From an uncultured Bacilli bacterium (lineage in GTDB: Bacteria; Bacillota_I; Bacilli_A; RF39; UBA660): a stretch of DNA of 64,000 nt. Both the position numbers and the translations under genes were made by a program. Below the pieces are notes generated by a model, which saw only the letters and a program-made list of their open reading frames with translations, ran no database searches and was not told the origin of the DNA. This document shows, piece by piece, positions 10,219 through 14,709 of this stretch. Each line of letters starts with the position of its first letter. The first letter of the stretch is position 1. Where the stretch lies: assembly GCA_934167695.1 (NCBI GenBank), contig CAKPLP010000003.1:11529-75528 (forward strand), given 5' to 3'.

Positions 10219-11151
10219 TTGGTTAAAGTAGTTTTTATGGGAACTCCTAATTTTAGTGTTCCTGTGTTAGAAAGTTTAATAGAAAATGAAAATTATGATG
10301 TTGTTGGGGTGGTTAGTCAACCAGATAAAAAAGTTGGTAGAAAACAATTACTTACTCCAAGTCCTATATCAGAGGTTGCTATTTTAAATAATATTCCTTT
10401 ACTTAGAATAGAAAATATTAAAAATGATTTTCAATGTGTTTTAGAGTTAAATCCTGATATTATTATTACGTGTGCGTATGGTCAAATTATACCTCAGGAA
10501 CTTTTGGAATTTCCTAAATATGGTTGTATAAATGTTCATGCTTCTCTTTTACCTAAGTTTAGAGGAGGGGCTCCAATTCAAAGAGCTATTATTACAGGAG
10601 AAGAAAAAACTGGTATTACTATTATGTATATGGATAAAAAAATGGATAGTGGTGATATAATTGTTCAAGAAGAGTTAGATATATTGGATAGTGATAATTT
10701 AGAGACATTAACGAATAAGCTTAGTATTCTTGGACGTGATCTACTTCTTAAAACTTTACCTAGTATTATAAATAATACAAATTCTAGATTTTCTCAAGAT
10801 AGTAGTAAAGTAACTTATGCTTATAATATTACTCATGATGAAGAACATATAGATTTTAATAAAAGTTGTAGAAATGTTTTTAATCAAGTTAGAGGTTTAT
10901 CTCCTAATCCTGGATGCTATGTTTGTTTTCATGAAAAGGTTATTAAGGTTTATAATGGTTATGAAACAAAAGATGTTGCAACAGGAAATGTTGGTATGAT
11001 AACAAAAATTTATAAGGATGGTATAGGAGTTAATACGCAGAACTATATTTATGTTATTACAGAAATTAAATTAGAGGGTAAAAAGAAAATGAAGACTAAA
11101 GATTATCTTAATGGGTGTAAAGATAAGTTAATAGGAGAGTATTATGAGTAA
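10219..11151 (+). CDS. fmt: methionyl-tRNA formyltransferase
   Basis: VKVVFMGTPNFSV N-terminus. HASLLPKFRGGAPIQ motif. Likely TTG start at 10219 after a GGAAGGTG RBS (GTG 10210 possible). Confidence 0.9.
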   Translation: MVKVVFMGTPNFSVPVLESLIENENYDVVGVVSQPDKKVGRKQLLTPSPISEVAILNNIPLLRIENIKNDFQCVLELNPDIIITCAYGQIIPQELLEFPKYGCINVHASLLPKFRGGAPIQRAIITGEEKTGITIMYMDKKMDSGDIIVQEELDILDSDNLETLTNKLSILGRDLLLKTLPSIINNTNSRFSQDSSKVTYAYNITHDEEHIDFNKSCRNVFNQVRGLSPNPGCYVCFHEKVIKVYNGYETKDVATGNVGMITKIYKDGIGVNTQNYIYVITEIKLEGKKKMKTKDYLNGCKDKLIGEYYE

Positions 11152-11884
11152 GATACCTAATGATATGAAAAATAAGAATAAATTTCAAGAAGCTTTTGAA
11201 GATAATCCAGAACTTAAACAATTACTATTTTTTGGGTTTTACATAGTATTTTTCATTTTTATAGTAGTTTTACTTAGAAGTGCTTTTGCATCTAGTAATA
11301 ATAGACTAACAAGATATAATTCTGGTTATAATTATAGTTTTAAATTAAAAGAAATCGCAGGTAGAAATTATCATTTTTATTATAAACTTACTAAGAATTC
11401 TCAAACAGTAATTTTTGATGGTGATAAGAATGATAATATTGAAAATTTTGTTATGAGTGGAAATCCTACAATTCAATATTATAATGATAATAATAATTAC
11501 TATGCCAAAAATAATAATACATTAATTTATGAAAAGACTACTAATCCAATGGAGTTTTACAAAGTTATTGAACTTGAGAATTTAAGAAAATTGTTTGTTC
11601 ATGGTACTTATATATCTAAAACTGAATATCTTGATGGGGAAGGAGAGGATTACACATATCAAATTAGTACTAGTAGTATGCTTAGAAATTTAGATAATGT
11701 GGAATCTGATTTAGACTCTGTTAATACGGTAGTTGTTAAAGTTAATAAAGATGATGTAATGAGTGAAGTTAATTTAGATTTGACTAATTATTATCATTAT
11801 TATGATAGTAGTATATATGAATATAAATTGAGTCTTATATATTCTAAAATTGGTGAAGTTGGTAATATTAGTGGTGAAAGATAA
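11144..11884 (+). CDS. hypothetical membrane-anchored protein (246 aa)
   Basis: Single TM (LLFFGFYIVFFIFIVVLL) after a short cytoplasmic N-terminus. N/Y-rich extracellular part. Occupies the position of rsmB. Confidence 0.45.
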   Translation: MSKIPNDMKNKNKFQEAFEDNPELKQLLFFGFYIVFFIFIVVLLRSAFASSNNRLTRYNSGYNYSFKLKEIAGRNYHFYYKLTKNSQTVIFDGDKNDNIENFVMSGNPTIQYYNDNNNYYAKNNNTLIYEKTTNPMEFYKVIELENLRKLFVHGTYISKTEYLDGEGEDYTYQISTSSMLRNLDNVESDLDSVNTVVVKVNKDDVMSEVNLDLTNYYHYYDSSIYEYKLSLIYSKIGEVGNISGER

Positions 11885-11901
11885 ATTCTTTCAACTTTTT
11901 T
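11875..11901 (+). terminator. putative intrinsic terminator (TGAAAG-7nt-CTTTCA + ACTTTTTT)
   Basis: 6-bp stem overlapping the stop of the upstream gene, followed by a U-tract. Confidence 0.4.
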
Positions 11902-11996
11902 GTAATTATATGTATAATTTTGAAAATAAAATATTTAAACATTTACTTTTTTAAGATTTTTTGTTATTCTGTAATTATAATAGAGGTGCGTTAAAG

Positions 11997-12904: not shown

Positions 12905-13698
12905 ATGAAGAATAAGAAATCAAGTTTTAAATTATTATTTTCATTTTTATTGGGAATTTTGTTTGTTGGTGGAGGAGTATATGCTGCGACGACTGTTACT
13001 AGTAGTACTATAACTTATAGTAATTCTAGAAGTGGTTTATCATCAACAACAGTACAGGGAGCAATAAATGAATTATATACTAAAACTAAATCGTCTGCAT
13101 CAAGTATTAATGCTTTGCCTAATATAGTTGCAGCCTATAAATATAGTACGGCTACAGCTACTAAATGTACCACTGGTAATGAATCAACTTGTGTTGTTAC
13201 ATATTGCTATACTAAAAATACTTCAGGTAGTTGTGAACCTGGGACAATAATAAAATACAAGGTAAATGATACTGAGATAGTTACTTTTCATGTTCTTTAT
13301 GATGATTTATATGGCCTTATAATGCAAAGCCAAAAGAATATAATATATAGTGTTGCTTGGAATGCTAATAGTACTACTAATACTAGTGACCTCTTACTGC
13401 TTTGACTGCTCTTGAAAGTGCAACAGCAGGTTGGAGTAATGTTCTTTCTCAAACCTATACTGCTGGTACTACTAGATTATTTTCTGGTTTGTCTGGAGTA
13501 ACTTATACAGGTTGTAGTGCAGTTGTTGCTAATACATGTACTAGTAATACTTACACCTTGGCATCAAGGACTGCTGCAACAGGTTCAACAACCGCATGGC
13601 AAATATCTTCAACTGGTCAAATTGTTAAATATGCACCTGTTACTTATACTGATAATGGTGTAAGAGCGGTTGTTGCTGTTACTAAGGGTTATAATTAA
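12905..13698 (+). pseudogene. paralog family copy 2, interrupted by a -1/+1 frameshift near 13388-13402 (ORFs 12905-13405 and 13402-13698)
   Basis: The two consecutive ORFs align end-to-end with copy 3 (…NSSASISDGPVTVLSAIE… vs …NTSD|PLTALTALES…). A single-nucleotide indel explains the break. It could also be a sequencing error. Confidence 0.55.
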
Positions 13699-13785
13699 AT
13701 AGTTTTATTAATAATTATTGTGCTTTTTCATTTTATTTGATATTGTGTATTTATAATAGGTGTTAGAAGGGAAGAAAAATTAAGT

Positions 13786-14682
13786 ATGGTTAATAAAATT
13801 TTAGTAATGTTTAAGAAAAATTGGAAAATTGTATTTTCTTTTGTCTTAGGAATGATAGTAACTGTTGGTGGAGTATATGCAGCTACTGCTGTTTCTGGTA
13901 GTACGATAACTTATGATAATTCTACTAGTGGATTATCATCTACAAATGTTCAAGGGGCGATAGATGAATTATATAATAAAACTAAAGAAAAAAAATTCGT
14001 TGTTGCCTATACATATAGTACAGCAACATCAACAAAATGTATCACAGGTGATGAATCAACTTGTGTGAAAACAACGTGTTATAAAACAACTGGAAAGAGT
14101 ACTTGTCCTGTAGGTACAATAATTAAGTATAGAGTAAAAGATTTTGAAATAGTTACTTTTCATGTTGTGCGTGATGAATTTTATGGTCTTGTAATGCAAA
14201 CACAAAAGAATACGGTATATAATGTTGCTTGGAATGGAAATAGTTCTGCTAGTATTAGTGATGGTCCTGTTACTGTATTAAGTGCTATTGAAAATGAAAC
14301 TGCTAGCTGGAGTAATGTTAATTCTCAAACTTATACTGCTGGTACTACTAAATTTATTGCTAATCCATTAGAAGGATCTTCGGCAAGTGCTTATACGATG
14401 TGTACTAGTAGTAATGATATAAATACATGTACTACGAACTCTTATACTTTATCTTCACGAACTGCGAAAGCAAGATTATTAACAGTTCAGGAAGCGATAA
14501 CTGCTGGATACAATGGTCATGCTCCTGATTGGATGATGGGTGCTAATGCTGAATATTGGCTTATGACTACTGGGTCTAACTCACCTTATCATATGTCTAG
14601 TGGTTATATTGTTGCGTATGCATCGATTACTTCTAAATTGAATGCACGAGCAGTTGTTTCTGTTACTAAAGGTGATTATTAA
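13786..14682 (+). CDS. secreted Cys-containing protein, paralog family copy 3
   Basis: Same signal peptide/mature N-module (GGVYAATAVSGSTITYDNSTSGLSSTNVQGAIDEL). Conserved C-terminus ARAVVSVTKGDY. Confidence 0.6.
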   Translation: MVNKILVMFKKNWKIVFSFVLGMIVTVGGVYAATAVSGSTITYDNSTSGLSSTNVQGAIDELYNKTKEKKFVVAYTYSTATSTKCITGDESTCVKTTCYKTTGKSTCPVGTIIKYRVKDFEIVTFHVVRDEFYGLVMQTQKNTVYNVAWNGNSSASISDGPVTVLSAIENETASWSNVNSQTYTAGTTKFIANPLEGSSASAYTMCTSSNDINTCTTNSYTLSSRTAKARLLTVQEAITAGYNGHAPDWMMGANAEYWLMTTGSNSPYHMSSGYIVAYASITSKLNARAVVSVTKGDY

Positions 14683-14709
14683 ACTTCATTTTATATGGAG
14701 TTTTTTTTT
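14682..14709 (+). terminator. intrinsic terminator (AACTTCAT/ATGGAGTT stem with one G-U, then T9)
   Basis: Hairpin followed by a 9-T run directly after the paralog array. Shows the ORF-track start of rlmN at 14695 is spurious. Confidence 0.55.

Follow-up and report, generated by a model that had tools for sequence, protein, structure and literature searches.

A strain-variable tandem array encoding predicted secreted proteins with C-type-lectin-like heads between fmt and rlmN of an uncultured gut Firmicute

C-type-lectin-like domains of the DUF6273 and DUF1566 types are widespread and poorly understood variable ligand binders in gut bacteria and phages. DUF6273 is exemplified by the N-terminal domain of the Thomasclavelia ramosa IgA protease (PDB 9qa6), which has been described both as a CTLD (PMC12237041) and as DUF6273 (PMC12402451), and by gut-phage DGR targets, or 'tentaclins'. 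A second comparable protein is the collagen-like adhesin Lcl of Legionella pneumophila, through its C-terminal domain (PDB 8q4e); trimerisation has been shown for Lcl. Other C-type-lectin-like proteins, such as Mtd of a Bordetella phage and TvpA of Treponema denticola, are diversified by the adenine-specific mutagenesis of DGRs. Mycoplasma, too, has multigene families of variable surface proteins whose 5' ends are conserved, such as the Vsp/Vlp lipoproteins.

The array described here lies in a 64-kb stretch of DNA (the window, 64,000 nucleotides in full) and comprises the paralogs par1, par2 and par3, which are co-directional between fmt and rlmN. We read it as probably a locally amplified, strain-variable, lineage-specific family of Sec-exported, disulfide-stabilised binding proteins in an uncultured low-GC human-gut Firmicute. 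The relevant features of the window are as follows.

11144..11884, + strand: 246-aa protein with an N-terminal membrane anchor and a LolA/LppX/LprG-like extracytoplasmic half-barrel
11997..12887, + strand: par1, intact, 296 aa (ORF calls, alignment and the gene call of the public contig)
12905..13698, + strand: par2, pseudogene, read as 12905-13405 and then 13402-13698 in another frame
13786..14682, + strand: par3, intact, 298 aa (ORF calls, family search and AF2 model)
44461..44682, + strand: fourth family copy, a degenerate remnant

The array is not a new kind of system, yet it differs from each of those above. In comparison with DUF6273 proteins, the window proteins fall below the Pfam model, their family has four conserved disulfides, and they are short and stand-alone with a signal peptide rather than parts of large enzymes or of virion proteins; unlike the gut-phage DGR targets, they have no RT or template repeat near them and owe their diversity to recombination between tandem copies. 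Lcl has a collagen-like stalk that the paralogs lack, a C-terminal domain without disulfides, a single gene copy and a type II secretion route in a Gram-negative host, whereas the paralog family has four disulfides, many copies and a Sec signal peptide in a Firmicute. Where Mtd and TvpA vary by adenine-specific mutagenesis, the array varies by whole-cassette replacement and ordinary substitutions. Phage tail fibres (PHROG 2137 and others, those of C. difficile phages and gp68 of the Faecalibacterium phage FP_Taranis) share a short N-terminal unit, here the N-unit, with the paralogs, and gp68 likewise joins it to a DUF6273 head, but in the paralogs a single unit immediately follows a signal peptide, and their genes belong to a housekeeping operon that lacks virion genes. 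The array resembles the Vsp/Vlp families in its conserved signal-peptide region, divergent mature regions, tandem arrangement, inter-copy recombination, and copy number and intactness that vary from strain to strain; it differs from them in having an unrelated fold and no lipobox, and neither a simple-sequence or invertible switch at the array nor within-strain on/off switching was seen.

The fmt gene occupies 10210-11151 by ORF calls and rlmN starts at 14743. Pfam assignments along the public contig give the order priA, fmt, rlmN, PP2C, PknB, rsgA, rpe; the array genes are thus embedded in a housekeeping operon, priA-fmt-rlmN-prkC, and this conserved operon hosts the locus in three species. 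The first-pass annotation had reported a 246-aa anchored protein and three paralogs, one of them frameshifted, from fmt to rlmN, with rsmB (and def) missing from the usual place. The ORFs agree with this description, and a motif scan of the whole 64-kb window found neither def nor rsmB. Its word 'inserted' is only partly apt, as the slot in a related species already holds one family gene. Similarly, its count of three paralogs holds for the fmt-rlmN interval but overlooks the degenerate copy at 44461-44682, in which a signal peptide and the start of the N-motif, close to the N-termini of intact family members, run into stop codons and then into the C-terminus GARAVVVVSK with its stop codon, the bulk of the gene having been deleted. 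A homolog search yielded at least 137 family proteins, all unnamed, and 126 family loci, all in uncultured gut MAGs labelled Bacilli/Tenericutes; single MAGs hold up to at least 11 copies, tandem arrays reach five copies, and fragments are numerous. Around 81 of the family loci, no partner gene recurred in more than six.

In the public contig par1 starts at ATG 11997, preceded by an AGAGGTG Shine-Dalgarno sequence, rather than at TTG 11961. Its signal peptide spans 11997-12092 with a predicted cut at VYA↓A, the tail-fibre-type unit follows at 12117-12182, and a beta-barrel and C-type-lectin-like head complete the protein, which retains all eight family cysteines and is present exactly in public collections (P0075). 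By alignment the N-terminal fragment of par2 is 64% and par3 45% identical to par1. In par3 the signal peptide (13786-13881) and unit (13906-13971) precede the barrel and head (13993-14679); the fourth cysteine pair is lost (Y242, A246), and the most variable segment of the family corresponds to 14566-14646 (aa 261-287). The motifs noted earlier, GGVYA↓A, TYDNSxSGLSSTNVQxAIDEL, CxTGxESTCV and GTIIKYKVND, are all seen in the alignment, while the ARAVVxVTKG C-terminus is that of par2 and par3 but not of par1, which has KAVVNINKPV instead.

The frameshift in par2 is a 4-bp deletion (TGGT) near 13391, and a second lesion, an internal deletion of about 135 bp near 13568, removes the head core ARxxTxQEA...YWxM. 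The split state recurs in at least six contigs assembled independently and therefore is no one-off assembly error. The 5' part of par2, up to about 13254, corresponds to copy 2 of a four-copy haplotype and the 3' part to copy 3; the sliding identity to locus L177 is 89-100% with copy 2 and then 86-100% with copy 3. Judged from these matches, par2 is a copy 2/copy 3 recombinant that was broken afterwards by the 4-bp and 135-bp deletions. DNA relatedness among par1, par2 and par3 is likewise mosaic.

Three haplotypes of the array are known, with flanks 97-100% identical and heads replaced. Between par1 and the orthologous copy in sister strains, the N-terminal halves are 97-100% identical at the DNA level and the heads 55-73%. 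Column entropy across the family peaks at aa 261-287, so the C-terminal diversification proposed earlier is real and is concentrated at these residues and in whole-head swaps between strains. Against its haplotype C ortholog par3 has a dN/dS of 0.83 (31 substitutions), as compared with 0.13-0.37 for flanking genes, a value that is also compatible with relaxed constraint. We rejected a DGR as the source of diversity: there is no TR/VR-like repeat in the 64-kb window and no RT-like ORF within 6 kb of any of 81 loci.

Signal peptides and cleavage sites were assigned by sequence rules. The paralog N-termini have an n-region with a charge of +4, then 18 uncharged residues and GG ahead of the cut site; across the family V or A stands at -3 in 86 of 97 members and A at -1 in 88 of 97. 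The first-pass annotation had made its proposal depend on a signal peptide, and the N-termini do look like classic Sec/SPase I signal peptides; the paralogs would accordingly be Sec-exported and cleaved at VYA↓A. None of the retention signals sought (LPXTG, LysM, SLH, lipobox) occurs in the paralogs, and LPxTG is found within the last 60 residues of 0 of 97 family members. Eight cysteines are conserved in the family and are lost only as neighbouring pairs, which implies four disulfides.

Scans of the window paralogs against Pfam, NCBIfam and PHROG gave no usable match. The AF2 model of par3 is confident (pLDDT 86.2, pTM 0.78), and in it the body is predicted to combine a small SH3-like beta-barrel with a fused C-type-lectin-like head (DUF6273/Lcl_C type), a fold that the first-pass annotation had overlooked. 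Both the barrel plus C-type-lectin-like core of DUF6273, as in the IgA protease N-terminal domain, and the fold of the Lcl C-terminal domain (Lcl_C/DUF1566) are recognised in the model. Its best BFVD structure matches are phage DUF6273 proteins (E 7.7e-6), and the top structural matches are non-catalytic binding domains. With the DUF6273 HMM (PF19789), par1, par2 and par3 have no match even at E<=1, while 4 of 97 family members match weakly (best E 0.0069) and P0051 carries a precomputed PF19789 match; the Lcl_C/DUF1566 HMM (PF07603) does not match window proteins but gives sub-threshold matches in 7 of 97 members (best E 0.0026). PDB sequence searches with par3, the family profile, the N-module profile and the repeat proteins returned chance matches only, e.g. 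PPR and TBPIP. Since the window paralogs have no HMM match and the family profile no PDB relative, homology to DUF6273/Lcl_C rests on the fold and on the weak matches of other members. Matches to Neprosin_AP and Fer4 among family members were taken as Cys-rich noise. The Ca2+/carbohydrate motifs EPN/QPD and WND are absent from par1-3 (family: WND 0 of 97, EPN/QPD 3 of 97), and in the absence of these canonical motifs of C-type lectins the ligand may be something other than a glycan.

We propose that the signal peptide directs export and is cut at VYA↓A, that the N-unit would then provide a stalk, a means of oligomerisation or a docking site, and that the barrel and head would be held by four sequential disulfides. 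Ligand specificity would most likely reside in the hairpin and loops that immediately precede the last beta-strand (aa 261-287), because the family is most variable there and DGR-diversified C-type-lectin proteins carry their variable region at that place. Diversity would arise from gene duplication, from unequal crossing-over or cassette exchange among tandem copies, and from inactivation of single copies, so that strains of one species come to show different sets of heads. The likely function of the paralogs is variable ligand binding, at the surface or in secreted form, and they are probably variable adhesins; the ligands may be glycans of host or mucus, or the surfaces of other cells.

The N-unit, 'xVTYDNxxSGLxxTNVQxAIDEL', is about 28 aa long, forms a short strand and then a three-turn helix, and is present once per window paralog, after the signal peptide. 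A profile search placed it in 7957 representative clusters at E<=1e-3, with up to 54 copies in one protein, and 10 of 10 sampled repeat proteins match PHROG tail-fibre families. With relaxed tblastn against cultured phages it was located under annotated tail-fibre genes of C. difficile phages; at strict E-values the same approach with short or repetitive motif queries gave no match, and a protein search with a 43-aa N-motif query gave one candidate. The unit also stands at the N-terminus of the DUF6273 protein gp68, a DGR target of FP_Taranis (68% identity over 22 residues), where N-unit, spacers and DUF6273 head follow in the same module order as in the paralogs. These findings bear out the likeness to phage tail fibres that the first-pass annotation had noted, and the tail-fibre form of the unit, xVxYDNxxSGLxAxNVQxAIDEL, is present in the window paralogs. 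No Pfam, NCBIfam or PDB entry covers the unit, and a literature search for its motif string found no paper. The conserved mature N-terminus also behaves as a portable module, as proposed: the whole signal and motif segment (profile positions 1-74) precedes several unrelated passenger domains as well. About half of the full-length members in other MAGs have instead a simple signal peptide or a different N-terminal domain, so the unit is dispensable for the head. For the paralogs we infer that it has a role in stalk formation, oligomerisation or docking.

This role is where the leading alternative departs from our reading. The N-terminus could be a signal peptide and linker with no assembly or docking role, its similarity among copies reflecting the youth of the family and 5' ends homogenised by recombination, its tail-fibre likeness the shared ancestry of a small element, and the proteins soluble secreted binders. 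The copies have evidently undergone recombination and gene conversion, and the half of the full-length members that lack the unit carry the same barrel and head. However, the N-unit is among the least variable stretches, with column entropies of 1.0-1.3 bits against about 3 in the variable loop (about 97 members, 31-61% overall identity), the module is retained ahead of unrelated passengers, and the unit is conserved in thousands of phage fibre proteins; these three observations argue for a function of its own, and we regard this alternative as unlikely. More novel, and in our estimate rather doubtful, is a reading in which a phage-derived N-module cassette, for docking or oligomerisation, mounts interchangeable heads on a common surface structure in a lineage of gut Bacilli, and cassette recombination rather than a DGR reshuffles them between strains. 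The heads may then include the DUF6273-like lectin, Cys-rich domains (also on pilin-like proteins) and others, and the cassette may be the cellular counterpart of the variable receptor-binding heads that phages carry on a conserved baseplate adaptor. In a sharper version, phage and host proteins may compete for, or mimic, the same ligands.

Could the genes themselves be phage-related, either as remnants of prophage receptor-binding proteins or as host mimics that mask the cell's own receptors (superinfection exclusion, anti-phage decoys)? The N-unit and a DUF6273-like head are both characteristic of the tail proteins of gut phages, gp68 combines them in the same order, and strain-level head swapping is expected of arms-race loci. 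But none of 81 loci has phage structural, integrase or lysis genes in its vicinity, the conserved housekeeping operon holds the locus in three species, and IMG/VR relatives were found for the N-unit only, with none for barrel or head at the sensitivity used. The paralogs also carry Sec signal peptides, which virion proteins lack, and do not lie in a virion or tail gene module. We consider this origin improbable.

Similarly improbable are surface-fibre subunits or tips, or spore appendage or exosporium proteins, with the N-terminal strand as donor strand or connector (as in TasA, archaeal bundling pili and Bacillus Ena). The mature N-terminus (ATxVSGSxVTY) is indeed strand-prone and poorly modelled in the AF2 monomer, and in other MAGs family heads also occur behind an alternative N-domain of about 200 aa that faintly matches Peptidase_M73/TasA (2 of 12 members, E 0.002) and AbpX of the archaeal bundling pilus (E 0.09). 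Sporulation genes are present in related genomes, and a pilin-like protein of the window has a passenger domain in common with N-module proteins; both would fit this reading. These similarities are all weak or indirect, and a SipW-type peptidase, a sortase signal or a fibre-subunit gene is never a recurrent neighbour. A SipW/TasA-type signal is unsupported for the window proteins: neither Peptidase_M73 nor a SipW-cognate signal matches them, the NCBIfam models (presumably including one for the SipW-cognate signal) gave no match, and an S26-type peptidase motif is absent from window and loci. The analogies drawn earlier to pilin, flagellin and exosporium proteins find no support either; the prepilin motif G↓F(M)TLxE (N_methyl) is absent from par1-3, the only match in the window being a separate protein at 42745-43518, and no spore-coat context was seen at these loci. 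An enzyme on a C-type-lectin/FGE-like fold, e.g. of the formylglycine-generating or sulfatase-modifying type, is highly improbable, given that Pfam and NCBIfam hold no enzyme family match, the top structure matches are non-catalytic, the most variable region sits where a conserved active site is expected, and structural residues (Cys, Gly, Tyr, Trp, Pro) make up most of the invariant positions.

On our preferred reading, as variable secreted or surface binders, the locus shows a cell-encoded, Sec-exported version of the C-type-lectin-like proteins that diversifies without a DGR, tandem duplication, unequal crossing-over and exchange of head cassettes yielding three or more array haplotypes within a single human-gut species. 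Two abundant unannotated elements come to light as well, the tail-fibre unit with its thousands of clusters and the family itself. Should the heads recognise host or mucus ligands, the array would be a determinant of how individual strains of an uncultured commensal colonise; should they meet phage-related ligands, host surface variation would be linked to phage receptor-binding modules.

The 246-aa protein is a neighbour, unrelated to the paralog family. It has one N-terminal TM segment and a half-barrel with lid helix characteristic of the LolA/LppX/LprG superfamily, and its gene overlaps the fmt stop codon and is translationally coupled to fmt. The first-pass annotation had counted it as part of the insertion, but its position next to fmt is conserved in related species too. 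The DNA of the locus is AT-rich.

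The window carries the conserved Firmicute gene order priA ... fmt ... rlmN, followed by the genes for a PP2C phosphatase and a PASTA kinase, rsgA and rpe, in low-GC DNA (26.7% G+C). In B. subtilis the order is priA-def-fmt-rsmB-rlmN-prpC-prkC. The first-pass annotation had reported an array of paralogs between fmt and rlmN and the absence of def and rsmB from their usual places, and both observations hold: the motifs it quoted are present in the alignment of the three paralogs, and a motif scan of the whole 64-kb window found neither a def nor an rsmB signature. The relevant features are as follows.

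8990-10213, between priA and fmt, at the def position of B. subtilis: 407-aa protein, function unassigned, with one C-terminal transmembrane segment
11144-11884, same strand as par1-par3, at the rsmB position: membrane-anchored 246-aa protein
11997-12887, same strand as the 246-aa gene, par2 and par3, at the rsmB position: par1, first paralog
12905-13698, same strand as the 246-aa gene, par1 and par3, at the rsmB position: par2, second paralog, broken
13786-14682, same strand as the 246-aa gene, par1 and par2, at the rsmB position: par3, third paralog
12117-12182 (in par1) and 13906-13971 (in par3): copies of a ~28-aa unit that follows the signal peptide (the N-unit), found elsewhere in, for example, P0135, P0108, P0114 and P0169 from public protein collections
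44461-44682: degenerate fourth family copy, almost wholly deleted, with a signal peptide and the start of the N-motif, two stop codons, then the family C-terminus ...GARAVVVVSK-stop

The three paralogs can be aligned end to end. par2 is a pseudogene, having lost 4 bp near 13391 and ~135 bp near 13568, and the broken state is found again in at least six independent assemblies. The remnant at 44461-44682, with genes for two zinc-ribbon membrane proteins on one side and a peptidase-U32-like gene on the other, had been overlooked in the first-pass annotation; the start of par1 and its C-terminal motif are also corrected here. Nor is the 246-aa protein part of an insertion, as had been proposed. 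Its gene start overlaps the fmt stop codon, its 13 homologs all fall within the one narrow lineage to which the window belongs, and both a sister species (58% identity) and a more distant MAG (31%) also have it beside fmt. The gene belongs to the conserved backbone of the lineage, outside the paralog family, and its product is possibly a lipid or glycolipid carrier. The 407-aa protein matches no family; its placement is conserved across three species, with homologs of 398 aa in L013 and of 380 aa (27% identity) in L074.

No curated library (Pfam, NCBIfam, PHROG) recognises par1-par3, and every one of the 137 relatives retrieved from a large protein collection is unnamed or 'hypothetical'. A scan of one genome per species returned 126 family loci, every one in a MAG of an uncultured gut organism from a human, mouse, rabbit or rumen source; the MAGs carry the labels Bacilli, Tenericutes, Erysipelotrichaceae or Clostridia. 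In some of them the copy number reaches 8 to at least 11. The 81 loci examined contain 130 family ORFs in arrays of up to five copies, together with numerous short fragments; no partner gene recurs near family members in more than six of these loci, pilin-like genes being found in six. In the sister species the fmt-rlmN slot contains one family gene, and in the more distant MAG one lies between priA and the 407-aa homolog, which marks this backbone as a long-standing home of the family. The array in the window is a local expansion at the priA-rlmN backbone. Separately, P0001 (273 aa, from a 1,014-bp ENA contig) joins a PF00383 deaminase-like N-terminus (cytidine/deoxycytidylate) to par3 residues ~66-298 at 97% identity; a chimera created in short-contig assembly or gene calling is the most likely explanation.

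The proteins begin with a signal peptide that has an n-region charge of +4, then 18 uncharged residues and GG before V-Y-A. Across the family, position −3 is V or A in 86 of 97 members and position −1 is A in 88, a pattern that reads as classic Sec/SPase I, with predicted cleavage. The N-unit follows at residues ~36-64 (xVTYDNSxSGLSSTNVQGAIDELY); by family entropy it ranks with the protein's least variable stretches, and in the predicted structure it comprises a short strand and a three-turn helix. A small barrel (residues ~70-150, containing CxTGxESTC...C...C and GTIIKYKVND) leads to a C-type-lectin-like head at residues ~150-298. Eight cysteines are conserved in the family, and any losses affect both members of a neighbouring pair (98/107, 206/215 or 242/246), which implies four disulfides between successive cysteines and a location outside the cytoplasm.

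Among predicted viral structures the top matches are DUF6273 proteins. In the literature the IgAse domain is described both as a CTLD (PMC12237041) and as DUF6273 (PMC12402451), and DUF6273 domains are C-lec heads on which DGRs act in gut phages (PMC10743442). Sub-threshold HMM matches occur to Lcl_C in 7 of 97 family members and to DUF6273 in 4 of 97, with none among the window proteins, and a family-profile sequence search found no PDB relatives. Because the sequence link is weak, with no demonstrated Pfam membership, we class the family, on predicted fold, as distantly related to DUF6273/Lcl_C.

The first-pass annotation had pointed to a loose likeness of the mature N-terminus to phage tail fibres, and this likeness is real. 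A profile of the N-module (signal peptide plus N-unit, the first ~74 residues) scored against 1.84 billion representatives at E<=1e-3 matched 7957 representative proteins, which fall into two classes. In the first, the 28-aa unit alone is matched, often repeatedly, with a maximum of 54 copies in a 5298-aa protein; all ten sampled repeat proteins of this class matched PHROG tail-fibre families. In the second, the whole module is matched once, at the N-terminus, and is followed by the family body or by quite different passenger domains (P0236, P0241, P0274, P0243/46/60, P0250 and P0261/P0111). The unit itself, though typical of phage tail-fibre proteins, has no Pfam, NCBIfam or PDB entry, and we found no mention of xVxYDNxxSGLxAxNVQxAIDEL in the searchable literature. 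In IMG/VR, 78 viral loci matched, all via the N-unit only, examples being small fibre-like proteins with the unit close to the N-terminus. Among cultured phages, the unit lies inside annotated tail-fibre genes of C. difficile phages and at residues 22-43 of gp68 of Faecalibacterium phage FP_Taranis, annotated 'DUF6273 domain-containing protein, DGR target' and encoded after the baseplate and fibre genes, beside a reverse transcriptase. The module order of gp68 (unit, spacers, DUF6273 head) is the same as that of the window paralogs.

P0261 and P0111 bear the N-module and no pilin N-terminus, and their passenger is homologous (E 6e-7) to the Cys-rich C-terminal domain of a prepilin-type protein encoded at 42745-43518 (N_methyl motif MNNKGFTLVELI); one cargo is thus carried on two N-terminal scaffolds. 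The N-unit is missing from about half of the full-length members found in other MAGs, and is therefore a portable accessory that the head does not require. These members start either with an ordinary signal peptide or with a ~200-aa domain preceded by a signal that ends in ...G(S/T)YA(W/A)F... (alternative N-termini occur in L034, L048, L051, L059, L062, L067, L072, L076, L079, L082, L084, L085 and other loci, and in P0093, P0100 and P0104). The ~200-aa domain profile gives faint matches to Peptidase_M73 (camelysin/TasA) and AbpX, a protein of archaeal bundling pili, hinting at a fibre-forming scaffold.

Public assemblies of the window's own species, some from Hadza human-gut samples, contain three haplotypes of the array between flanking genes that are 97-100% identical.

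Haplotype A (the window): 296 aa, pseudogene, 298 aa
Haplotype B (L167 and L171-L176): 294 aa, 285 aa, pseudogene (55+171 aa)
Haplotype C (L177): four intact copies, with ORFs read as 288, 285, 320 and 298 aa

The haplotypes differ in copy number (three or four), in which copies are inactivated and in their heads, which have been replaced: identity between A and B falls from ~100% to 33-73% exactly across the heads of copies 1 and 2. The window copies are mosaics at the DNA level, in which the par1 N-unit is 92% identical to par3, the par1 barrel 81-83% identical to par2, and the start of the par2 head 78-83% identical to par3. Window par2 matches haplotype C copy 2 to about 13254 and copy 3 beyond; it arose by unequal crossing-over within the conserved GTIIKYKVND region and was inactivated later. 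Family entropy peaks at residues 261-287, in the hairpin that links the YWxM strand to the last strand (ARAVV), equivalent in position to the variable region of DGR-targeted C-lec proteins. DGR activity as the source of variation is rejected, since there is no template repeat in the window and no reverse transcriptase near any of the 81 loci examined. The dN/dS of par3 against its haplotype-C ortholog is 0.83, compared with 0.13-0.37 in four of five flanking genes (three of the four at similar dS; the fifth, PP2C, has zero synonymous changes and hence no ratio), a rise that is suggestive only, the counts being small. Short-read contigs often stop about 150 nt into par1 (L169, L170), as expected in a repeated and variable region. 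Some haplotype-B assemblies split fmt (L171 3214-4155) or the PASTA kinase gene (L173 9476-10885) into two ORFs, reflecting either strain pseudogenes or assembly errors.

Taken together, the paralogs are best read as exported, disulfide-bonded, lectin-like proteins with a predicted binding function, whose heads recombination and gene loss diversify at the population level. The family proteins have no LPXTG, lipobox or wall-binding repeat as a retention signal, and the canonical Ca2+/sugar motifs of C-type lectins are absent. Given how conserved and portable it is, and that tail fibres also use it, the N-unit most likely acts as a short stalk or as an oligomerisation or docking element. The putative ligand is probably a polymer on host, mucus or microbial surfaces, by analogy with phage DUF6273 heads and with Lcl, a trimeric GAG-binding adhesin (PMC11162425). 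The paralogs belong to a known kind, the variable binding proteins with a C-lec fold that occur in gut bacteria and phages. What is new in them is a cell-encoded protein combining a signal peptide with a tail-fibre unit, and four disulfides; new in the array are the DGR-independent shuffling of cassettes and the strain haplotypes inside a housekeeping operon.

Elsewhere in the window, 43569-44383 encodes a pair of neighbouring small paralogs, in each of which repeated CxxC zinc-ribbon motifs precede two transmembrane segments. A sortase-like ORF (51879-52697, TLVTC motif at 52536) overlaps the next ORF (52681-56076, 1131 aa); 51879-56076, possibly a locus for a sortase substrate or a pilus, is unconnected with the paralog array.
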